The position numbers and the translations under genes were made by a program. Below the pieces are notes generated by a model. The model saw only the letters and a program-made list of their open reading frames with translations, was not told the DNA's origin and made no database searches. From Dehalococcoidia bacterium (lineage in GTDB: Bacteria > Chloroflexota > Dehalococcoidia > Lucifugimonadales > JADFKI01), in contig CBDCTG010000002.1 in the NCBI GenBank assembly GCA_965222145.1, forward strand, positions 445,646 through 509,645: 64,000 nt of DNA, in the 5' to 3' direction. This document shows, piece by piece, positions 4,792 through 29,570 of the stretch (positions within the stretch are counted from its first letter, which is position 1; each line of letters opens with the position of its first letter).

Positions 4792-6852
4792 TTAGAGTGT
4801 GAATGAAGGCACTGTCGGACGCTTCCTGCCATAGACTGCGGTGCCATTGGTCTTGCCTGTGCTGCCATTGGAGCCGTTCGCGCTGCCGTTTACCGGGCGG
4901 CGCGGCGCGATTCCGTTGTTGAATCCGTCGTGCGGAAGCAGACTGTTCACACGCTGGAACATGGACCCGGCGCTTTCGATTGACTCGTCACTGATCTCCT
5001 GCCGCAGCCGTGCGTGGTTTTCCAGCAGCCACGCCGCGGGCCGGTACGAATCGAAGTGTCCGCCCGCAATCTTATCCATCTCGAAATGTCTCTCAAGTCG
5101 TTGCACGATGCGCGGGTCCTTCGCCGAGATAGCCTTCATGGACACAGGCTCTCGCAATTCCATCCCATACGACTCGTTAACCAGCTTCAGGTAGAAAGAC
5201 GGATCGAGGATATCCTCGATGTCTGCGGTGCGGATTTTCTGCACCTCCACCCACTTCACCGGAGTATTGCGCTGGATGACGCTATTCTGGTTGATCAACT
5301 CCATCTTCGCCTTGTTCTTCGGGGTGACATCCATCATCACGGCGACGCTGACATAACTCTCGCCGAGCAGCGATACGAACATTGGCAGATTGTCGGAGTT
5401 GCCCACCGGAATGACGACCCAACGGGGGTCGAGGCGCTGGAAGCCCTTGCTGGCGCAAATCTCACCCAGTATCTGCAGGTATATCAGGTCCGACGCCGAG
5501 TTCACCATGAGGCAATGCGGCGCGAGGAAAAGCATGTGCGCCAGGTCATGCCCGAGCGCTACCTGCAGCGGGAAGATCGTATCCTGGTCATTGCTCAGGG
5601 TGTCGGAGCTGATTACCGTGCCCCTATCGTCCACGTCCTGCACCGTGCGTATGCGATCGAGATGGTTCAGGTTAATCATGAACGGCGAGTGCGTGGTGTA
5701 GATGACCTGATGCTTGGGCGCGAGCCGCTCGTCGATGAATCGCAGGAAGTCGTGCTGTGCCAGAGCATGCAGGTTCAAGCCCGGCTCGTCCAGCAGCAAC
5801 ACAAGGTCGCAATCCTCCTGCTCTTCGATGCTGGAGAAGTATGTCAGGAACGAGAAGAACCAGACGAAGCCCTTCGATCGGTCGTCGAAAGGCACCGAAA
5901 CACGGTGCCGGTTGTTCCAGATGCGGACATGCAGGATTGTACCTTCGTTAAGTGGGGGCACATCGTTAGGGTCGGCGGGCGACAGGTCGAACTCAACGCG
6001 GAGCTCCGTATTCTGCGCCCAGTACTCGAACATCTCGTCGGAGATGCTGATGGACGCCGATTCAAGCTCAGCCTTCATGTATTCATAGTTCGTCTGATGC
6101 TGCAGGTCCTCAAGGTCGGCGCCCACCAGCGATATCAACGACATAAAGGTGCGGTCCGACTCATCGAACTCATCACCCGCCTGCACGCGCCTGCTCATGT
6201 CCTGCATGGAGATTCTCCCGCGCATGGTGCTGTACTCGTCAAAGTACACGAACTTCGGCATCATCGCGAACAGAACTTCTTCGACTACTTCCCTTGCGGA
6301 CTTCTCACCGAATCGCTCGTACATCCGCGTGATGAGCCTGCCAACCGCAACCGGCTTTACATCCAGCGCCTCCAACAGGCTGAGCATTTCCTTCACGCTG
6401 CCGGCGCTGCCTGCATGGCTGGTGATTTCGGGCGGCAACTCAGCGCTGCTCAGCAAATACTGGACGATGGCGCTCTCGTCCATCTCAAAATCCCACATAA
6501 GTTCGTTCTTGTAGTTCTTAGAGACCGTAATCTCCTCCGAAAGCAATACCCCGTCCCCAATGTGCTCCGCCAGCAGTTCAAACTCATCCTCTGACAGCGT
6601 CATTATCGCTGTGACGGCGGTGGCGGGATCGGATGGATGGCGCCTCCGATACCTGACATAGCCCTTGCGAGGGAAGTCCTTGAGTTCGAACTCCTGGCCG
6701 CCGTCAACGGGGTTGAGCCGCTTCAGAGCGCCGAGAAATGCCGTCTTGCCCGACTCGTTCTTGCCGACCATCGAGGTGACGGCATCTATATCGACCCAGC
6801 CGGAATCGTCAATGGATTTGAAGTCGGTTACCCGAGCGCGAACAAGTTTCAT
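4792..6852 (-). CDS. OLD-family-like ABC/AAA ATPase with a C-terminal TOPRIM-like region (possible defence gene)
   Basis: Walker A GKNESGKT. Signature/Walker B region LLLDEPGLNLH. D-loop/H-loop region YTTHSPFMIN. The C-terminal block CLMVNSASDLIYL ... VVIPVGNSDNL ... VAVMMDV has TOPRIM spacing. Confidence 0.55.
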   Translation of the reverse strand: MKLVRARVTDFKSIDDSGWVDIDAVTSMVGKNESGKTAFLGALKRLNPVDGGQEFELKDFPRKGYVRYRRRHPSDPATAVTAIMTLSEDEFELLAEHIGDGVLLSEEITVSKNYKNELMWDFEMDESAIVQYLLSSAELPPEITSHAGSAGSVKEMLSLLEALDVKPVAVGRLITRMYERFGEKSAREVVEEVLFAMMPKFVYFDEYSTMRGRISMQDMSRRVQAGDEFDESDRTFMSLISLVGADLEDLQHQTNYEYMKAELESASISISDEMFEYWAQNTELRVEFDLSPADPNDVPPLNEGTILHVRIWNNRHRVSVPFDDRSKGFVWFFSFLTYFSSIEEQEDCDLVLLLDEPGLNLHALAQHDFLRFIDERLAPKHQVIYTTHSPFMINLNHLDRIRTVQDVDDRGTVISSDTLSNDQDTIFPLQVALGHDLAHMLFLAPHCLMVNSASDLIYLQILGEICASKGFQRLDPRWVVIPVGNSDNLPMFVSLLGESYVSVAVMMDVTPKNKAKMELINQNSVIQRNTPVKWVEVQKIRTADIEDILDPSFYLKLVNESYGMELREPVSMKAISAKDPRIVQRLERHFEMDKIAGGHFDSYRPAAWLLENHARLRQEISDESIESAGSMFQRVNSLLPHDGFNNGIAPRRPVNGSANGSNGSTGKTNGTAVYGRKRPTVPSFTL

Positions 6853-7113: not shown

Positions 7114-8109
7114 ATGAAAGTAGGCATAGCAGGATTGCGTGCTCCTGGGGGGTCTTGGCAGGACACGCTGCGGTTAGCGAAGTTGGCCGATGAGCTTGGC
7201 TACAGCTGTATCACGATGGGCGAGGCGTGGGGCGAGGACGCCTTCACATCGCTGGCGCAGGTGGCGGCAGTCACCGAGCGAATACGCATCGGCACCGGCA
7301 TCGTGCCCGTATTCGCGCGCTCGCCGTCCAACATAGCAATGACCGCTCTCAATATGGACCTGATGTCCGAGGGGCGCTTCTTCCTGGGACTTGGCGCAAG
7401 CGGCAGGCTGGTCATCGAGGACTTTCACGGCGAGGAATTTCGCAAGCCGTTGGCTCGCATGCGCGAATATATAAGCATCATCCGCAAGGCGGCGGCAGGC
7501 GAGCGTCTGGATTACAGCGGCGAGTTTTTCAAGTTACAGAGATTTCATATACGGTTTCAGCCTTACCGTTCAGAGTTGCCCATTTACATCGCGTCGCTAA
7601 CTCAGCCGAGCCTGCGACTCACAGGCGAAGTCGCGGACGGCTGGCTACCCATATTCCTTGCACCCTCACGCATGGAGCCGCTCATAGCGGACATCGAAGA
7701 GGGCGCGCAAGCCGCGGGACGGTCGCTAGACGACATCTCCATCTGCCCGCAGGTGTCCATATATGTTACTGACGACGTGGACGAAGCCCGGCGTCGCGAG
7801 CGCCCCCACATTTCGTTCTACATTGGTGGGATGGGCGAGTTCTACCATCGGTACATGCACCGAATCGGGTTCGGAGCGCAATCCGACGAGGTTCGACAGG
7901 CGTATCTCAACCGCGAGCGGGATGTGGCGGCATCGCTGGTGACGAACGAGATGGTTGACTCTACGACCATCATAGGGACACCGGAGGAGTGCCGCGAGCA
8001 GATGCAGGAATTCTTCGACGCAGGCGTGGACGAGATACGCCTCGTATTCAACGAACCGGATGTGGAGTCGTACATTGCGACGATGAAGGCGGTCGCGCCG
8101 GGACAGTAG
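7114..8109 (+). CDS. LLM-class (luciferase-like) F420/flavin-dependent oxidoreductase
   Basis: 331 aa. Typical LLM N-terminus (LAKLADELGYSCITMGEAWGEDAFTSLA ... RIRIGTGIVPVFARSP). Confidence 0.8.
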   Translation: MKVGIAGLRAPGGSWQDTLRLAKLADELGYSCITMGEAWGEDAFTSLAQVAAVTERIRIGTGIVPVFARSPSNIAMTALNMDLMSEGRFFLGLGASGRLVIEDFHGEEFRKPLARMREYISIIRKAAAGERLDYSGEFFKLQRFHIRFQPYRSELPIYIASLTQPSLRLTGEVADGWLPIFLAPSRMEPLIADIEEGAQAAGRSLDDISICPQVSIYVTDDVDEARRRERPHISFYIGGMGEFYHRYMHRIGFGAQSDEVRQAYLNRERDVAASLVTNEMVDSTTIIGTPEECREQMQEFFDAGVDEIRLVFNEPDVESYIATMKAVAPGQ

Positions 8110-12209: not shown

Positions 12210-13068
12210 GAGCCTGTTCACGATCTTCTTAGAATTAGCGCTGTGAAGGCAAGCACCACCATTTGCAGACTGGTATTGAGCTTTCTTTCGCAGTTCTTCC
12301 AGAGCCGGCGGCACTTTTGCAGCCAGGCAAAAGACCGCTCTACCACCCATCGCTTCGGAAGAACCACGAAGGTGTGAAGTTCGTTGCGCTTCACCACTTC
12401 CACCGAGGCTCCTAACAGACTTTGCACCGCAGTGGCAAAGGGCTTCCCTGTATAACCCCCATCGACAAGTACCTTTTGCACCTGCCTGAGGTCGGCTCCT
12501 CGTTGGTCGAACATCGCCAAAGCCCCGGCACGGTCGGTGACATTGGCGGTGGTCACGTGAATTGCATGCGGCAACCCCTGGGTGTCCACTGCGATGTGTC
12601 GCTTGATTCCCGAGACCTTCTTGCCGGCGTCATAGCCCTTGTTCTCGGCGCTGTCAGTGTTCTTAACGCTCTGAGAGTCCACGATGCAGAAGGTCGTCCG
12701 CTCTGTCCGTCCATTGCTTTGTCGGGCCTCGCCAACTGATTTTTTTTAAGACTTGCTCCAGAATGGACTCATTAGCCGCCTCGGGTCGCTCGCTCCACTG
12801 CCGGAAATACTTGTAGCAAGTGCGCCAATTGGGGAAGTCTGCGGGCAGCATTCGCCACTGGCATCCGCTTTTAAGAAGATACAATACCCCGCAGAAAACA
12901 TCATACAAGTCCACGGTGCGGGGCTTGGTCCTGCGGCGGGCCGACTCCAACAAGGGGAGAATCCGGGCAAATTGCTCTTGGCTGATGTCGCTGGGATAAG
13001 AATGAGACATGATTACCCTCCTGATAATAGTCTCAACCTATTATATTCCAGAGATCGTAGACAGGTTC
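12210..13068 (-). mobile_element. IS5-family insertion sequence (about 859 bp)
   Basis: 16-bp imperfect terminal inverted repeats: GAGCCTGTTCACGATC (12210-12225) and the reverse complement of 13053-13068 (GAACCTGTCTACGATC). Flanked by TTA at 12207-12209 and 13069-13071 (TTAG context). Confidence 0.85.
12218..13010 (-). CDS. IS5-family DDE transposase, split at an A8 run
   Basis: orfA is MSHSYPSDISQEQFARILPLLE ... CQWRMLP. The DDE part is ... SVGEARQSNGRTERTTFCIVDSQSVKNTDSAENKGYDAGKK ... VDGGYTG ... RWVVERSFAW. The frames join at the T8/A8 run at 12740-12747, and an A7 run would give one 263-aa ORF. Confidence 0.85.
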
Positions 13069-13699: not shown

Positions 13700-14329
13700 A
13701 TGACTATATCAACACCGCAAATCTCATTCTTTGGGCATTTGGATAAGTCGGATGCCGTATTGCTCGGTCTGCTGGCAATGCTCGAGTCGGGTAAAGAGAT
13801 ATGCGCCGCCAGAATGGTCAATCTAATTTACCTATTGGACGAGTTCAGCTATCAGCACGACGGAGTTACGCTTACCGGGTTCGACTATATCCGGAGCGAC
13901 GACGGACCGAATGTAGCCAACGATGAGGTGGATAAAGGGCTTGCCTCGTTGGTTCGGAAGGGACTCGTTCATTGCGCGCAGAAGTCAGCCTCGCCCGGCA
14001 GCTACAAGATTGATGGACAGGTCAACCTTGCCGAGATTCCGTTGAGTGCGGATGACTGGGCACTTATCCATTCCGTAATCCGCGAATACGGGGGCCTGAG
14101 CCACGCGGATATGGTTAAGGCGGCACGGCGAACCATGCCAATGAAGAACAGCGTGCGCTATGGCAAACTCCGGTTTCAGCCCAACCCTAAAATCGAGACT
14201 TTCAAGCAATCTGCTCGAAAAGATGCCGACTTCATGGAAAAATGCATGACTGCGCTTGCCGACAGCTTGGAAGGAGTTGCCATCGAAGAATTGAGAGGCG
14301 CAGTCGTTGCCGAACAGACTGACCCTTAG
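13700..14329 (+). CDS. Panacea/SocA-like (DUF4065-like) putative antitoxin
   Basis: 209 aa. MVNLIYLLDEFSYQHDGVTLTGFDYIRSDDGPNV resembles the K-L-x-Y-x-x-D ... G-x-x-x-T-G ... Y ... G-P core of the domain. Family call is from memory and is tentative. Confidence 0.4.
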   Translation: MTISTPQISFFGHLDKSDAVLLGLLAMLESGKEICAARMVNLIYLLDEFSYQHDGVTLTGFDYIRSDDGPNVANDEVDKGLASLVRKGLVHCAQKSASPGSYKIDGQVNLAEIPLSADDWALIHSVIREYGGLSHADMVKAARRTMPMKNSVRYGKLRFQPNPKIETFKQSARKDADFMEKCMTALADSLEGVAIEELRGAVVAEQTDP

Positions 14330-14570: not shown

Positions 14571-14691
14571 TAGGAACGGCTTCAACGCGGCGTGTAGGCG
14601 TCGGGCGGCGTGATGCCGCCATGTCCCAGGTAGGAGAATCGGCTGCCCCCCTAAAACCACACTCCCCAGTCCGACGTCCCCCCAATTCCCC

Positions 14692-14720
14692 TTGACAACC
14701 CAAACGCCCGTGCGTATCAT
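14692..14720 (+). promoter_or_regulatory. Strong sigma70-type promoter of repeat-protein paralogue A
   Basis: TTGACA (14692-14697), 17-nt spacer, TATCAT (14715-14720). The block CCCTTGACAACYCAAAC is shared with the promoter at 27431. Confidence 0.6.
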
Positions 14721-14822
14721 ATATTAAATTACCAGAACATACAATCCTATCCATACTGCACATCCTGTTAAGTCTATGAAACACTGACCGGCTGACCACT
14801 GAAAACTCTGAACTGAAAAACC

Positions 14823-15911
14823 ATGTGCATTCAAGACAACATACAATCCAAAATCGCACAACTCACACAAAACGGCGATACCATAGCCGTCTTCCTTGCA
14901 GACACCCTGCAAGGCTCATCCGACCATGCTATAAAAATCTGCCACCGAATGGACGCAGCCAAATTGCTCACCAAATACGGCTTCCCTCAACAAGCCCACA
15001 ACAATGTCATACCCTTCACTCCAAAAGAGACTGATGAATCAGAGAACGAATCGTCCATGTCAGCCCCCGCTCCCACCCTCAGAGACATCGTCGCCTACCC
15101 CGTCGCCCGCTACATCCGCAACCGTACGGATGACGGCGAAAACCTAGTCCACGCCCTCTGCCAAATCATGAACGGCGGCGAATTCCGTCAAGACCCATTC
15201 ACCGGTGAACCTCGGCAAACGGTCAAGCCGCGCGAGCGCCTCGCAGCCGCGAAAGAACTCTTGCGCCGCGCTTTCGGCGAACCCGCCCCATCGCGCCGCA
15301 ACTCCACAGCCTACAACTCTGCCGCAGACATCGACGAGCGCGACCCACTAAACACGCTCATCGCCAAACTCGTCCGCGACAAGACCAACGACGGCATCGC
15401 CGCCGCCGAACTCCTGATACGCATCGCCGAAAATGACGACACAGAAGGCGACTGGCTGCCCGCCCACCGCCTTTCGGCAGCGAAAGAACTCCTGCACCGC
15501 GCCTACGACCTCAACTACGACGCGGTAACTTGGGAACACATAGACGCCTACAACAACAACGCCTATCCGCTCGACCTGAACGAAGAAGCCGAGCGAACGC
15601 GCCATAAAGAGCGAATATCCGCCCTCATCAAAGAGTACGACGAAGCCCGCGCAGCCGACGACGAAGACGCGATGGCAGCCGCTGAAAAGGAGTACGCCAA
15701 CTACATAAAGTACGGCGACGAATCAGCCCCCGCCGAGACGTCAGAACACTTGGAGTACGGCCCAAACGACCCTGATCCGACCGTCGACTACTACTACCCG
15801 CCCCTGAGCAAGGAAGAACAGGCGAAGTTCGACGAGGATATGCGCCGCAACTCCGCCGCCAACATCCACACCCCCAAACTCACCATCCCCCTAAAAATCC
15901 GCAGCCCCTAA
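14823..15911 (+). CDS. Unrecognised protein family, three tandem helical repeats (paralogue A)
   Basis: 362 aa, a paralogue of 27549-29093. Repeats end in HRMDAAKLLTKYGF, ERLAAAKELLRRAFGE and HRLSAAKELLHRAYDLNYD. Conserved C-terminus YGPNDPDPTVDYYYPPLSKEEQAKFDED. No Shine-Dalgarno sequence. Confidence 0.7.
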   Translation: MCIQDNIQSKIAQLTQNGDTIAVFLADTLQGSSDHAIKICHRMDAAKLLTKYGFPQQAHNNVIPFTPKETDESENESSMSAPAPTLRDIVAYPVARYIRNRTDDGENLVHALCQIMNGGEFRQDPFTGEPRQTVKPRERLAAAKELLRRAFGEPAPSRRNSTAYNSAADIDERDPLNTLIAKLVRDKTNDGIAAAELLIRIAENDDTEGDWLPAHRLSAAKELLHRAYDLNYDAVTWEHIDAYNNNAYPLDLNEEAERTRHKERISALIKEYDEARAADDEDAMAAAEKEYANYIKYGDESAPAETSEHLEYGPNDPDPTVDYYYPPLSKEEQAKFDEDMRRNSAANIHTPKLTIPLKIRSP

Positions 15912-24747: not shown

Positions 24748-26465
24748 CCCGAATCCACCGAAGAGTCATGGTATCTCTGCCGGAGCGTGGGTGAAGGACG
24801 CGGCAAGGTGGCGGTGCGGGTATGATGCCGACGCTGGAGCGTTCTGAAGGTCCCCGGTCGTGATGTTGAACGCCAATGGAGGCCCACAGTGGCGATTGTG
24901 GGTGAAGTTGACGAATCGGTGAGCAGCAGGGGATACTCACGGTCCGGTCCGGCGCGAGTCTGGGGATGAGATGGGTTATGGAGTGTATGGTGGGCAGTCG
25001 TCGCCGCTGCCGTCAGCTGTCAGCTCGGTAACGGAATGGTTCGCAGTCTGGCCAGAGCGCGGCCGAACTGTGTTTCCCAGGGCCAGCGCTGGGGAAGATG
25101 CAGGGTGAGACGGCGTGCCGAGCGTGTAAGCCGTCCGGCGAGGGAGAAGAATCGTCTGCGCAAGGTCTTGGTGGTGGAGGCTCGTTCTTCCAGTCCGATG
25201 CGGGAGGTCCAGCGAGCCAGATTGTGAGCCATCACCTGCACGGCCAACCAGGCGGCGTTGGCTGCGAAGCGCCCTGAGGGCAGATGGTTCAGTCCTACGC
25301 CGTACTTCAGGTCGCGGATGGCGTTCTCCACCTCGGCGTGGCGGCGATGGTCGGCCTCCAGTTGGAGGGTGTCGCCCTCTCGGTCCGTGATGAAACCGTG
25401 ATAGCTGTAGTTGGTGAAGAGCGCCAGTTGAGAGCCGGGCGTGGGCTTCACTCTGCGGACGATGAGTCGCACTGGTGCGGCGTCGGGCTTGCTCTCGAAG
25501 GGAGTGTAAATGGTCTCGGCCACATCGGCTGTGCCGTCCATCCAGTAGGGTATGGGTGTCCAGTCCGTCTCTGGTATGGCCTCGATGAGATTGCGCAGTC
25601 GGGGGTGCTGTCGGACGGTGATGGAGAAGCGGACATCCATCTTGCGACAGACGGCAACGATGGTGTGGGCATAGAAGCCGCTGTCGGCCCGCACCGTGAG
25701 CGCTCCCGTGGCTCCGGCGTAGCGCACTCGCGCCACCGTCTCCCGCAGGAAGTTGGCTGCGCCCCGGGCGGTGTTGGCTCGGCCCTTGCGCAGTCGTGCC
25801 ATCAGCACGTCGCCGGTTCCTGAGGCAACGGCCAGCAGCGGATGATAGCCCCGCTGGCCGGTGTAGTTGTGATGGCGCGCTCCCTCCTTTGCCAGTCCAT
25901 AGGTCTCGCAGACCGTCGAGTCTATGTCGATCGTCAGAGGCGAGTCCTCGGGGCCTGCCCCGGCGTCCCAGGCACGCGCCAGAAACTCTCGGCTCACCCG
26001 GTCCAACTGTCGCACATGTCCCCAGCGGAAACTGCGTAGGAATGTCCCCAGCGTGGATGGAGCCTTGACCACACAACCCAGTACCGAGGAGGTCCTGCCC
26101 GCCCGCAACACGTCGGCATCGTCAATGCAGTCGCCACCGACCAGAGCCGACGCCACCAGGGTCAGTATCTTGTCCCCGGTGTTGGCCCGCCCCGGGGCGT
26201 CGCCCAGGTCAACGTGGTTGTCGACGAGTTGGCTCAGACCCAGACGCCCGGCCAGGGTGACCGGCAGGATCAGCCCGGCATTGGCTACCAGGCGGGGATC
26301 GTCGAAGGCGATTTGGATGCGGTCAGGGTGGTTACGTGGTAGCATCTGTTGGGTGCTCCTTTTCTGTGACAGGTTTTGTGTTGTAAAACCATTATCTCAG
26401 ATTCAGAGGTGCACCCTTTTGCTTCTTCAGGAGGCCTCTCACACGCCCCCCTCGGTGGATTGGGG
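24748..26465 (-). mobile_element. IS1380-family insertion sequence, copy 1 (1718 bp)
   Basis: Termini are CCCGAATCCACCGAAG ... and ... CCTCGGTGGATTGGGG (imperfect inverted repeats). Flanked by CTTAT (24743-24747) and CTTAG (26466-26470). Every ORF in every frame matches copy 2. Confidence 0.9.
25020..26345 (-). CDS. IS1380-family transposase
   Basis: 441 aa. IDIDSTVCETYGLAKEGARHHNYTGQRGYHPLLA, HRRHAEVENAIRDLKYGVGLNHLPSGRFAANAAWLAVQVMAHNLARW. Confidence 0.9.
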   Translation of the reverse strand: MLPRNHPDRIQIAFDDPRLVANAGLILPVTLAGRLGLSQLVDNHVDLGDAPGRANTGDKILTLVASALVGGDCIDDADVLRAGRTSSVLGCVVKAPSTLGTFLRSFRWGHVRQLDRVSREFLARAWDAGAGPEDSPLTIDIDSTVCETYGLAKEGARHHNYTGQRGYHPLLAVASGTGDVLMARLRKGRANTARGAANFLRETVARVRYAGATGALTVRADSGFYAHTIVAVCRKMDVRFSITVRQHPRLRNLIEAIPETDWTPIPYWMDGTADVAETIYTPFESKPDAAPVRLIVRRVKPTPGSQLALFTNYSYHGFITDREGDTLQLEADHRRHAEVENAIRDLKYGVGLNHLPSGRFAANAAWLAVQVMAHNLARWTSRIGLEERASTTKTLRRRFFSLAGRLTRSARRLTLHLPQRWPWETQFGRALARLRTIPLPS

Positions 26466-27219: not shown

Positions 27220-27430
27220 TATTACTCCTCCGAACTGGCAGCCCTAAACCCGTAAGAAGATAGCTGGACCGCTTAACAAAAGGAACCATTACCCACCCAG
27301 ATTACCAGTAGCAGCATTGCTACGCGAGGCAACCCCCGGAATGACGCCAACCATTGGCTGACACCCAACCCTTCCAATCACACTCCGCCCTAAGCCGAAC
27401 CCCGCAAATTCTGCCTGACATATCCCGCCC

Positions 27431-27459
27431 TTGACAACTCAAACATTCGTACTTACAAT
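27431..27459 (+). promoter_or_regulatory. Strong sigma70-type promoter of repeat-protein paralogue B
   Basis: TTGACA (27431-27436), 17-nt spacer, TACAAT (27454-27459). Shares CCCTTGACAACYCAAAC with 14689-14705. Confidence 0.6.
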
Positions 27460-27548
27460 GGATACCTAACGGAACGAACATATATTCGCAGTGAAGCAGT
27501 CGATTCACATCACTGACAACTGTGAACTGAAACTGAAAACTAAAGCCT

Positions 27549-29093
27549 ATGTGCAATCCAGCAGACATACAACACAAGATTCACAGCTTCACCAAAGACG
27601 GTGAACACATCGCGCGCTTCCTCACGGAAACAATGCGGGGCAAGACCCCCGGCGTCAAAGTCTGCCACAGAATGGAAGCCGCAAAACACCTTATCCGCTA
27701 CGGCTTCCCCGACGCCGACTGCGTAACCACCTCTACCCGTCTTTCCCGCGCAGGCGGGAACCCAGAGGAGCAGGGCGGCGACGAAACCCCCGTTCAAAGT
27801 CCCCTCTCCCCTGGGAAGAGGGCTAGGGTGAGGGGAGAAGAGATTGCAGCCCCCGTAACCCACCTCGACATCATCAACTACCAGATAGCCCACCTCATAC
27901 GCCACGAAACAGCCGAAGGTCACACCCTCGTAGAGTTTCTCATTCACATCATGACCGGCAAAGACAGACCCTTCACTCCCAAGAAGTTCCGCATCAAGCC
28001 CGCAGACCGCATGGCAGCAGCAAGAGAACTCCTGCGTCGCGGCTTCGGAGACCTAGGCTCGCGCCGCAGGAAGTCAGACAGCACCGACGAAGAAAACGCC
28101 TACGACACCCTGCACACGGACCTAGCCAGACGAATGCGCGAGTACAGCGAGCGCGGCACCGACACCGTCCGCTTCCTGCTCGAAGTGATGTCAGACCCCG
28201 ACCCTGACCTAGAGTTCACCATCCATCACCGCTTGTCAGCGGCACAGGAGCTTCTGCGCCGAGGCTGGGACACCAACTACGACAACATCAAGCCCAAGCA
28301 CCTCCAAGCCTACTGGCAGGACAAGGAATCCCCGCGTCTCTCCATAGGCCAGAAAAAGACCCAGGCAGGCCTCTCAACCACCATCGACGACTACGACCAG
28401 TACGACGATGTAGATTATGAAGCCATCGCCCAAGAGATCAGAGAAGAAGAAGATCGAGACGACAACTCAAAGCCTCTTCGTTTCCAAGCGACCGTCCCAT
28501 CTTCTCGCCCTTCCTCCGAAAGCAGGAATCCAGAAGACCGCCAAGCCGCCAGTCCTTCCACAAAGCTCCCTCTCGCCCAGGGACTGAGCAGGCGTGAAGG
28601 CACTAATAATTCCCTTCCCCCTCGACGGGGGAAGGTTAGGATGGGGGTGAAGACTCCCACACAAAGCCCGCTCCCGAACAAGGCAACCACCGTCAATGAA
28701 CACGACAAAGCCATCATCAAAGAGTTCAAGGAAGCCATGGACAAAGGCGACGAGCGGGCCGCCCTCCGCGCACAGGCAAAGTACCGCCGCATAGACGTAA
28801 AACCAGAAAAGAACATCTACGACTACGGCCCCAACGACCCCGACCCAACAATCGACTACTACTTCGAACCCCTAAACCCCGAAGAGCAGGCAAAGTTCGA
28901 CAAAGAAGACCGGCGCGAATACGGTCTGACCGAAGACGAGCCAGCCACCAATGGCAGCGCGAACCAACCCTCGCCGAACGGCACGGCCGATTCGCTCGCG
29001 CCAATAAAGCAAGCCGCCGCGCTCCACGGCACACCCATCCGCCCCAACCCACTCGCCGCCAAGCTCCAAAAGCCAACCATCCGCAGCCCCTAA
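27549..29093 (+). CDS. Unrecognised protein family, three tandem helical repeats (paralogue B, expanded by in-frame palindromic elements)
   Basis: 514 aa. Repeats end in HRMEAAKHLIRYGF, DRMAAARELLRRGFGD and HRLSAAQELLRRGWDTNYD. C-terminus YGPNDPDPTIDYYFEPLNPEEQAKFDKED. No Shine-Dalgarno sequence. Confidence 0.7.
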   Translation: MCNPADIQHKIHSFTKDGEHIARFLTETMRGKTPGVKVCHRMEAAKHLIRYGFPDADCVTTSTRLSRAGGNPEEQGGDETPVQSPLSPGKRARVRGEEIAAPVTHLDIINYQIAHLIRHETAEGHTLVEFLIHIMTGKDRPFTPKKFRIKPADRMAAARELLRRGFGDLGSRRRKSDSTDEENAYDTLHTDLARRMREYSERGTDTVRFLLEVMSDPDPDLEFTIHHRLSAAQELLRRGWDTNYDNIKPKHLQAYWQDKESPRLSIGQKKTQAGLSTTIDDYDQYDDVDYEAIAQEIREEEDRDDNSKPLRFQATVPSSRPSSESRNPEDRQAASPSTKLPLAQGLSRREGTNNSLPPRRGKVRMGVKTPTQSPLPNKATTVNEHDKAIIKEFKEAMDKGDERAALRAQAKYRRIDVKPEKNIYDYGPNDPDPTIDYYFEPLNPEEQAKFDKEDRREYGLTEDEPATNGSANQPSPNGTADSLAPIKQAAALHGTPIRPNPLAAKLQKPTIRSP

Positions 29094-29160
29094 CCTCAAA
29101 CTCCCCTCTCCCTCAACTGACAGGGATATGTAAAGTTTGAACAAAGAAGGCTTGCCTATT

Positions 29161-29381
29161 CTGTCACTCTGAATTCAGCGCACGCTTACCTTGTCATTCT
29201 GAATTCAGCGCCCCTTTCCCTGTCATTTCGAACGCAGCGCACGCTTACTCTGTCATTCTGAATTCAGAGCACGCTTACACTGTCATTCTGAACGCAGCGC
29301 ACGCTTGCTCTGTCATTCTGAACGCAGCGCCCCCTTCCCCTGTCATTCTGAACGCAGCGCAGCGGAGTGAAGAATCTAAAA
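29161..29381 (+). repeat. Tandem array of 7 units, period 29-30 bp (consensus CTGTCATTCTGAACGCAGCGCACGCTTACT)
   Basis: Units start at 29161, 29191, 29220, 29250, 29280, 29310 and 29340. They are contiguous with no spacers. The last unit is the full 42-nt element also found at 8268-8309. Confidence 0.9.
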
Positions 29382-29570
29382 TATCTGCATGGCCGGACTG
29401 GGCTCGGTGTGAAAACCCTGCCTATCCTATTAGCTTCGTCCAACAAACCGACCCACCGACCTACCGACATACTGAAAAACTAACCCTCCCACTACACATT
29501 CCGCGCTCCCCGTGTTAGCCTTGTGCCGCGTGAACACCACGCGCACAAACTCACACGGAGGACGCTCGTT

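Follow-up and report, generated by a model that had tools for sequence, protein, structure and literature searches.

RecX proteins, which modulate RecA, are basic and are built of three tandem three-helix repeats. Expanded paralogue families of symbionts and pathogens, such as the eukaryotic-like repeat proteins of sponge symbionts, are lineage-restricted, occur as many dispersed copies and show within-genome similarity. In the LexA (Cheo-box) promoters of Gram-positives and of Dehalococcoides, a GAAC quasi-palindrome lies in the -10/start region of a strong promoter. Phage small terminases (TerS) carry, at their N-terminus, a DNA-binding domain of the helix-turn-helix (HTH) type, after which come an oligomerisation hairpin and a beta-strand (PMC7672466). 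Here we analysed a stretch of 64,000 nucleotides from a Dehalococcoidia bacterium (GenBank assembly GCA_965222145.1, contig CBDCTG010000002.1, positions 445,646 to 509,645 of the forward strand), hereafter the window, in which a sequence-only reading had pointed to a duplicated module of promoter, leader and gene encoding an unrecognised family of three-repeat proteins. The duplicated module was borne out, and its two genes, copies A and B, belong to a large family that touches each of the systems above in some of its features. As judged from curated libraries, solved structures and the literature found, in which it appears undescribed, we rate the protein family as outside the known kinds; its regulatory parts, a sigma70 promoter and an operator-like box, are of common types.

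A family of three-repeat proteins in Dehalococcoidia

Both open reading frames are present on the plus strand, copy A at 14823–15911 (362 aa) and copy B at 27549–29093 (514 aa). Their paralogy, which had been called clear from the sequence alone, was confirmed by BLASTP (E=1e-43), with identities of 35% (N-terminal 265 aa) and 45% (C-terminal YGPNDPDP...EEQAKFD block). Overall, the two copies are 39% identical, and they represent two old subfamilies. A hidden Markov model (HMM) of a single unit, built from distant relatives, recognised exactly three units of ~50 aa in each protein (E 1e-18 to 1e-23). In copy A, these units are encoded at 14838–14990, 15099–15281 and 15357–15512 and are followed by an acidic helical hairpin, the YGPNDPDP block and a ...PKLTIPLKIRSP tail; in copy B, they are encoded at 27564–27713, 27882–28052 and 28119–28274. 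A six-frame scan of the window with the same HMM returned exactly these six units and none further. The shared features that had been read from the two proteins, i.e., three internal repeats with the motif R(M/L)xAA(K/R/Q)ELLxRG(F/W), the block YGPNDPDPT(V/I)DYY...EEQAKFD and the IRSP terminus, are all present in both. In distant members, the clean ~50-aa units number two or three and follow the consensus sLAdIVREETdDGRxIVRFLxDVMqGxLxdfKPhHRLsAAkELLrRGFd, and the ...RSP terminus is found in many of these proteins. The 3' end of the gene is near-invariant at the level of the DNA: across paralogues it reads AAC CGC AGC CCC TRA, with Ser encoded by AGC in 20/20 and Arg by CGC in 19/20, and it reads ATC CGC AGC CCC TAA in copy A (15897–15911, plus strand) and in copy B (29079–29093). 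In five loci, a hairpin element stands in place of this 3' end and the product terminates in ...SLPP*. Within copy A, the segments coding for helix 3 of repeats 2 and 3 (15237–15276 and 15468–15507) share 80% DNA identity over 40 nt, which suggests internal duplication or conversion between its units.

The family is large and unannotated. One search returned at least 426 homologues, none with a Pfam domain and the sole name attached to any of them being 'hypothetical protein [Chloroflexi bacterium]', and an exhaustive profile search yielded 481 clusters (50% identity) at E<=1e-3 and 278 at E<=1e-10; homologues are abundant beyond the contig. A scan of JGI metagenomes added two family loci and no more. 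The named genome loci that carry the family all belong to metagenome-assembled genomes (MAGs) of Dehalococcoidia or SAR202, several being complete chromosomes and others sponge-derived bins; to our knowledge, the host lineage is uncultured. On a 4.5-kb contig binned as Gammaproteobacteria (locus L017, VXNY01000017.1), the DUF5678 operon described below accompanies a promoter, a leader and an N-terminus typical of the family; this contig is probably mis-binned Dehalococcoidia. Whole proteins had zero significant matches in Pfam, NCBIfam and PADLOC, and the sole significant match in PHROGs was phrog_15261, of unknown function (E=2.8e-4). Ten distant relatives and 34 single units likewise gave no significant match in the curated libraries, Pfam returning none at E<=1 for whole proteins or for the 34 units. 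When PDB sequences were searched with the protein and with the profiles of the family and of the unit, nothing was found under E=0.17, and whole-chain Foldseek searches of PDB and BFVD produced noise only; no characterised family was confidently matched in these searches.

Family members are present in 2 to at least 10 copies per genome. Within a genome, the copies are 76–94% identical at aligned positions and nearly every copy has its best match in its own genome, which points to lineage-specific bursts of duplication or gene conversion. In its lineage restriction, its many dispersed copies and its within-genome similarity, the family is comparable to the expanded paralogue families of symbionts and pathogens. 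Unlike these, however, it has no signal peptide and no repeat of the ankyrin, tetratricopeptide (TPR) or leucine-rich (LRR) type, and each copy is equipped with a conserved dedicated promoter, a putative operator and a leader devoid of a Shine-Dalgarno (SD) sequence.

The fold of the protein was modelled with AlphaFold2. The full-chain model, based on a 109-sequence alignment (mean predicted local distance difference test score, pLDDT, 79; predicted template modelling score, pTM, 0.63), comprises three three-helix units with a beta-hairpin insertion in unit 2, disordered linkers at residues 56–79 and 301–313, a long acidic two-helix hairpin at residues 252–300 and a short C-terminal helix. The model of a single unit (52 residues) has three helices, at a pLDDT of 89. 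Copy A has an isoelectric point of 4.9; the net basic parts are unit 2 alone in copy A, and units 1 and 2 in copy B. The three tandem ~50-aa helical units, each ending in a ...L.RRGF-type helix, reproduce the gross architecture of RecX, and the unit profile weakly matched 3dfg_A (E=0.51) on the '...RRKAADLLARRGFD' helix, as might be expected if the proteins were RecX-like RecA modulators. However, charge, copy number and genomic context all differ: the family proteins are acidic, and their genes, with 2 to at least 10 copies per genome, are not next to recA in any of the annotated contexts. RecX was rejected as a candidate, as (i) hhalign against E. coli RecX gave probabilities of 0.3–0.6% for the unit and for the full family, (ii) there was no Pfam match and (iii) RecX was not returned by Foldseek. 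We regard a RecX-like function as hardly credible.

The closest resemblance is to small terminases, and it is a weak one that does not amount to membership. When the unit model was compared with PDB by Foldseek, only two matches were obtained, the top one being the TerS of the Pseudomonas phage NV1 (7joq_G), with a template modelling (TM) score of 0.60 (query-normalised), a root-mean-square deviation of 3.4 A over 48 columns, 27% identity and E=4. Profile comparisons used a 37-sequence profile of the TerS family to which the related PaP3 TerS belongs (Pfam PF20901, Sf6_terminase). In hhalign, family residues 194–227 (AAELLIRIAENDDTEGDWLPAHRLSAAKELLHRA) aligned with TerS ~77–106 (ALRVIVSIAEDPNEKGGIRLKAAQDILDRG) at 37% identity over 30 columns; against PaP3/NV1 TerS the pairwise E was 0.003 but the probability 9–11%, and three other unrelated or rejected pairs run with the same tool gave E of 0.1–0.5. 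Two repeat units had faint matches to a PHROG terminase small subunit (E=0.39). The TerS segment concerned corresponds to alpha4-alpha5, a hairpin in the oligomerisation core, and not to the HTH (PMC7672466). The helix 2-loop-helix 3 of the unit (AAELLIRIAEN...HRLSAAKELLHRA) aligns to this alpha4-loop-alpha5 segment, the most conserved residues coincide and, as in TerS, the family protein runs on into an acidic C-terminal region. In contrast to TerS, in which the unit occurs once, the family has it thrice in tandem; no counterpart of the HTH or of the beta-strand (beta-barrel) was detected in the family protein, and 2 to at least 10 chromosomal copies per genome each have their own putatively repressible promoter. 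Pfam gave no match to PF20901 or to PF03592 (Terminase_2) at E<=1, with whole proteins or with the 34 units, and no phage gene was seen nearby, with no terminase or capsid gene in the ~28 family contexts. A phage origin by direct similarity was rejected, as neither tblastn against 50,697 GenBank phage records nor a pattern-based scan of IMG/VR returned a match.

Promoter, GAAC box and leader

The 17-nt block CCCTTGACAACYCAAAC is found within the 64 kb only at the promoters of copies A and B, i.e., twice: as CCCTTGACAACCCAAAC, which includes the -35, at 14689–14705 and as CCCTTGACAACTCAAAC at 27428–27444 (both plus strand). Across all family loci examined, it had 22 matches upstream of family genes and 1 elsewhere. 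The near-consensus promoters with 17-nt spacers that had been read inside this shared block were verified, each agreeing with the sigma70 consensus at 11/12 positions: promoter A (14692–14720, plus strand) consists of TTGACA and TATCAT with a spacer box AAACGCCCGTGC at 14702–14713, and promoter B (27431–27459, plus strand) of TTGACA and TACAAT with a spacer box AAACATTCGTAC at 27441–27452. Downstream lies a GAAC box, a putative operator just past the start site: box A, CAGAACATACAATCC, is located at 14733–14747 (plus strand; 19.3 bits with a position weight matrix, PWM) and box B, ACGAACATATATTCG, at 27474–27488 (plus strand; 20.4 bits). Box B is one position off CGAACATATGTTCG, which we take to be the Cheo-box consensus. 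When upstream regions were aligned on the -35, the likeness between promoters persisted: promoter and box are conserved at about 28–30 loci, in two promoter subtypes. Type I promoters read TTGACA-ACCCAAACAYCCGTCCG-TATCAT, with a conserved spacer and the box 10–18 nt downstream; Type II promoters read TTGACA-ACCCAACCACCTNCCCT-CATAAT, with the box directly abutting the -10. The box consensus, aaGAACAtacATTCt, is a quasi-palindrome, GAAC-N4-WWTC, at or just past the transcription start. With the box PWM at a threshold of >=14 bits, all matches in 372 kb were at family promoters, with two exceptions. Among the non-coding parts, family specificity is limited to the promoter block and the GAAC box; the related C-rich sequence claimed upstream of each promoter proved to be a weak point, only ~4–5 nt 5' of the -35 being conserved across loci. 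The distance between the -10 and the box varies (1–18 nt), which is more easily reconciled with a DNA operator than with an RNA element of the 5' end.

The promoter-block match outside family upstream regions is informative. In three loci (L017:3300–4055, L024:3990–4739 and L028:6320–7070), an operon of two genes is driven by a promoter of the same architecture, with a box (GAACATGCAC) that immediately follows the -10. The operon encodes a DUF5678 protein (90 aa) and a retropepsin-like aspartyl protease (135 aa; RVP), has a normal SD site and adjoins a family gene in all three loci; its promoter is absent from the 64-kb window. As promoter and box are also present at this operon, they define a small regulon and not a private feature of one gene. 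The DUF5678 and retropepsin proteins are probably a toxin-antitoxin (TA)-like pair in the same regulon.

Such a regulon could be an SOS regulon, in which the boxes would be LexA operators and the family, together with the DUF5678-retropepsin operon, would be induced by DNA damage. The comparison was made on lexA promoters only: the lexA genes of L027 and of seven retrieved loci (L029–L035) provided four distinct promoters. In all four, the -10 is immediately followed by GCGAACAT-NN-GT, of which the left half is perfect and the right half degenerate; the family box is alike in position and style. A resemblance to the L027 and L029 lexA operators (GAACATGCGTCC and GAACATGCGTAC) is also seen in the Type I spacer AAACATCCGTCC and in the copy B spacer box, and an even closer one to the lexA operators in the DUF5678 operon box GAACATGCACCC; in L027, lexA is directly downstream of the family gene. 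However, a PWM derived from lexA sites only gave 12–14 bits on family sites as compared to 20–21 on lexA sites, with equal scores at many unrelated places, and conversely the family box PWM gave the lexA operator just 7.5 bits. In addition, the right half of the family box is consistently ATTC or AATC, not GTNC, and the canonical GAAC-N4-GTTC (Cheo box) is absent from the 64-kb window. The family promoters share with LexA promoters a GAAC quasi-palindrome in the -10/start region of a strong promoter, and with the lexA genes of the lineage the GAACAT core, but the right half-site of the family box is systematically different. Because the lexA-only PWM does not separate family boxes from background, LexA control is a possibility and not a finding, and we consider the SOS reading unlikely. 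The lexA gene of the lineage, which has no canonical GTTC right half in its operator, is always followed by an HMA/P-type ATPase gene (L027:6171–6270; L029–L035 ~2370–2500), and that of L027, immediately downstream of the family gene, is located in an island with TIR, PLD and Uma2 genes.

The leaders, assuming a start ~7 nt past the -10, measure ~95 nt (A) and ~83 nt (B), in agreement with the 85–95 nt initially estimated. The absence of an SD sequence, also noted for both copies, holds across the family: an SD-like 4-mer at -20 to -4 is found in 0/30 family genes compared to 60/84 neighbouring called genes of the same genomes, and the G fraction of the last 50 nt of the leader is ~0.14 for the family against 0.28 for the neighbours. 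Directly before the ATG lies a G-poor tract with a period of 7, detected by lag-7 autocorrelation (14783–14822 in copy A, where it is A/C-rich, and 27511–27548 in copy B; both plus strand). Period 7 was the best lag in 19 of the 27 distinct loci, with a mean lag-7 autocorrelation of 0.47 vs 0.27 for shuffled sequences (~13 standard deviations). The unit of the tract drifts between loci (AACTGAA, AACTCAT, ACCTGAA or ACCTGAC) and the period is retained. Between the copy A tract and that of its orthologues L001/L002 (5960–6000), there is a difference of exactly one 7-nt unit (131 nt from -35 to ATG in copy A vs 138 nt in L001/L002), the proteins being 96–98% identical; a one-unit difference between near-identical orthologues points to a slippage-type length change.

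The copy A leader further contains a module, termed X (CCTATCCATACTGCACATCCTGTTAAG, 14746–14772, plus strand), in which TGCACAT (14757–14763) is complementary to ATGTGCA at the start codon (14823–14829). In six loci, the tract is replaced by the module CCTATCCATCCTGTACATCGATGTAAG, whose UGYACAU could pair with the start-codon AUGUGCA. RNAalifold kept this 7-bp helix between leader and start codon in 8/8 sequences, with no compensatory change, a weak signal that concerns a subset of loci. A structured cis-regulatory leader RNA was rejected, as (i) Rfam gave no match at gathering thresholds, (ii) the two window leaders folded no better than shuffled sequences (z = +0.70 and -1.03) and (iii) no covariation was found.

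Small repeats and genomic context

As had been read, both leaders end in reiterated units, here a period-7 tract of the CTGA type. However, the CTGAA(A)AC units, and a CCTATCC...CTGYACATCC module with them, are found with other genes too, before, after and within them. In L023 (7833–7870), a heptamer tract of nearly the same sequence lies before a NUDIX gene with an SD site, and module X is as common outside family leaders as within. Module X includes a 12-bp perfect palindrome (TACATCGATGTA) and was observed after the stop codons of unrelated genes (L025+7456, L028+1480 and L023+3863). In L012, a 31-nt direct repeat of module X brackets the coding sequence exactly (5966–5996 and 7207–7237), and L022 has three copies of the module X repeat (4951–4986, 5251–5286 and 6159–6194); no flanking module X direct repeats are present at the window copies. 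The leader modules are also found in frame in linker 1 of the protein, directly before repeat 2: there the heptamer tract of L024 is translated as TDNSELITDNSKLT, and module X of L022 as NPTHPVHPVSP. Copy B is longer than copy A, and its extra sequence consists in part of two in-frame hairpin repeat elements, at 27800–27843 and 28613–28655 (...CCCTCTCCCC...GGGTGAGGGG... and CCTTCCCCC...GGGGGAAGGTTAGGATGGGGGTG). The same hairpin elements were seen in leaders (L006 and L008), in linkers (two 59-nt copies in L012) and at the replaced 3' ends of the five paralogues mentioned above.

Two further repeats lie downstream of copy B. The tandem array at 29154–29369, with ~seven 30-nt units CTGTCATTCTGAAYKCAGCGCACGCTTAC, is directly downstream of the gene, and units related to it are present upstream of the L009 family gene and inside the L023 leader. 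The third occurrence of ACTGAAAAAC that had been pointed out, at 29471–29480, is real, the exact 10-mer being found twice vs 0.04 expected, but it belongs to the leader of another gene. There, ACTGAAAAAC is one unit of a period-8 A/C-rich tract (29440–29480; CCGACCCA CCGACCTA CCGACATA CTGAAAAA) that precedes a short-chain dehydrogenase gene.

The distribution of the leader repeats bears on a second explanation, autoregulation, in which the units would bind DNA and the products would bind their own promoter boxes or leader repeats, thereby cross-regulating one another. In line with this explanation, the promoter and the box are family-specific, the three protein repeats face 3–6 repeated units in the leader, and small terminases are DNA-recognition proteins (PMC7672466). 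However, the likeness to TerS concerns the oligomerisation hairpin (alpha4-alpha5) and not the HTH, the family proteins are acidic, the same promoter drives an unrelated operon, and the heptamer tract precedes the NUDIX gene as well. We regard autoregulation as distinctly unlikely.

At ~28 loci, the family gene always stands alone and its neighbours are unrelated: metabolic enzymes, ribosomal proteins, ATP-binding cassette (ABC) transporters, restriction-modification (R-M) enzymes, TA genes and, once, lexA. R-M, TIR/PLD or TA genes are located at most 5 kb away in about half of the annotated contexts. In the window, copy A lies beside a split IS4/IS5-family transposase (DDE_Tnp_1 + DUF4096; 12218–13010, minus strand) and a protein with a Panacea/SocA-like antitoxin domain (13700–14329, plus strand), and copy B beside an intact IS1380-type DDE transposase (25020–26345, minus strand). 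The accessory contexts described for the two copies, with insertion sequence (IS) and TA neighbours for A and the IS1380 element for B, are thus present, but they are not a general rule across the family, because one paralogue sits in a neighbourhood that is conserved across several genomes. In this neighbourhood, an epoxide hydrolase gene and a major facilitator superfamily (MFS) transporter gene are divergently upstream in all genomes, and two ferritin-like di-iron oxidase genes are downstream in five. The two downstream genes, which are Pfam-less, were considered as candidates for a conserved functional partner and rejected, being ferritin-like di-iron oxidases unrelated to the family.

The abundance of the genes might also reflect propagation more than benefit to the host, the module being a selfish duplicative cassette that spreads or homogenises through recombination at small flanking repeats. 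Several observations agree with this: the copies are more alike within than between genomes and reach at least 10 per genome, the 31-nt direct repeat brackets the L012 coding sequence and three copies of the repeat are present in L022, the 3' end is conserved as DNA and is a target for insertion of the hairpin element, and several copies are close to IS, TA and R-M genes. However, no transposase or integrase domain is encoded in the family protein (Pfam) and no such gene is consistently adjacent; terminal repeats are restricted to the L012 and L022 paralogues, with none flanking the window copies; and one paralogue occupies the neighbourhood conserved over several genomes. Finally, the strong conservation of many residues argues for selection on the protein. 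These points make a selfish cassette quite improbable.

Possible role of the family

We tentatively favour a composite reading, which the sequences make quite possible: strong promoters that would be repressed, translation without an SD sequence, and a multivalent, non-enzymatic binder composed of units that resemble the terminase hairpin. How the module is built and conserved, that promoter and box are specific to it, that SD sequences are lacking and how copy number is distributed are shown above, and it is repressor control, the mode of translation and the binding function that we infer. At the level of transcription, the strong sigma70 promoter in the family-specific block would be guarded by one or two operator-like boxes, namely GAAC-N4-WWTC at or just past the start site and, in Type I promoters, additionally AAACAYYCGTNC in the spacer. 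A putative common repressor would keep all copies off and allow their joint switch-on, the DUF5678 and retropepsin operon being co-regulated. The predicted leader of the mRNA is unstructured, G-poor and A/C-rich, is made of genome-wide small repeats and usually ends in a period-7 CTGA-type tract. Translation would start without SD pairing, and slippage-altered tract length may tune output. The product is predicted to be an acidic cytoplasmic protein of the beads-on-a-string type, with three three-helix units, repeat-tolerant disordered linkers, an acidic hairpin and a conserved tail. The helix-loop-helix core of the unit, hh..IAE/MxG...HRLxAAxELLxRG, is the part that weakly resembles the conserved oligomerisation hairpin of Sf6/PaP3-type TerS, and the protein would most likely bind a protein partner or nucleic acid in a multivalent manner, rather than act as an enzyme. 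The copies would expand or homogenise inside each genome.

Several points weigh against this composite reading. The generic nature of the leader repeats may mean tolerance to insertion rather than function, and about one quarter of the loci are without a period-7 tract. The boxes could act in RNA instead of DNA, and the acidity of the protein does not favour a classical DNA-binding role. The likeness to TerS is sub-threshold in every method, extends over ~30 residues and could be due to convergence between helix-loop-helix structures. Finally, the lineage restriction of the family is as seen in the collections searched.

The likeness to TerS also allows an anti-phage role, in which the family would be a cellular 'terminase decoy' whose three tandem TerS-like hairpins would co-assemble into the small-terminase rings of phages that infect the cell, and thereby poison them. 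Expression would then be blocked by a repressor, either a dedicated one or one like LexA, until infection or DNA damage lifts the block, amplification and diversification within each genome would track the diversity of phage terminases, and the SD-less leader would permit translation when normal initiation is compromised. Such a decoy is compatible with the sub-threshold TerS signals obtained by three methods, with the nearby R-M, TIR/PLD and TA genes and with the promoter shared with the TA-like pair; as a whole, we hold it to be very improbable.

With regard to the composite reading, the promoter, the box and the SD-less leader, in genomes in which most genes have an SD sequence, point to a tightly controlled regulon and to an SD-independent start of translation. 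The mini-repeats that recur in leaders, behind stop codons and in linkers are a clear case of small repeats absorbed into coding sequence. SAR202/Dehalococcoidia are abundant in marine sponges, as indicated by MAG labels and by sponge-microbiome studies (PMC5649159, PMC6306507). In this sponge-abundant lineage, the family described here, which lacks a Pfam model, a name and any relative of solved structure, is among the larger unannotated gene families. If the likeness to TerS is true, the family would represent a phage module that was domesticated and took on a new role.

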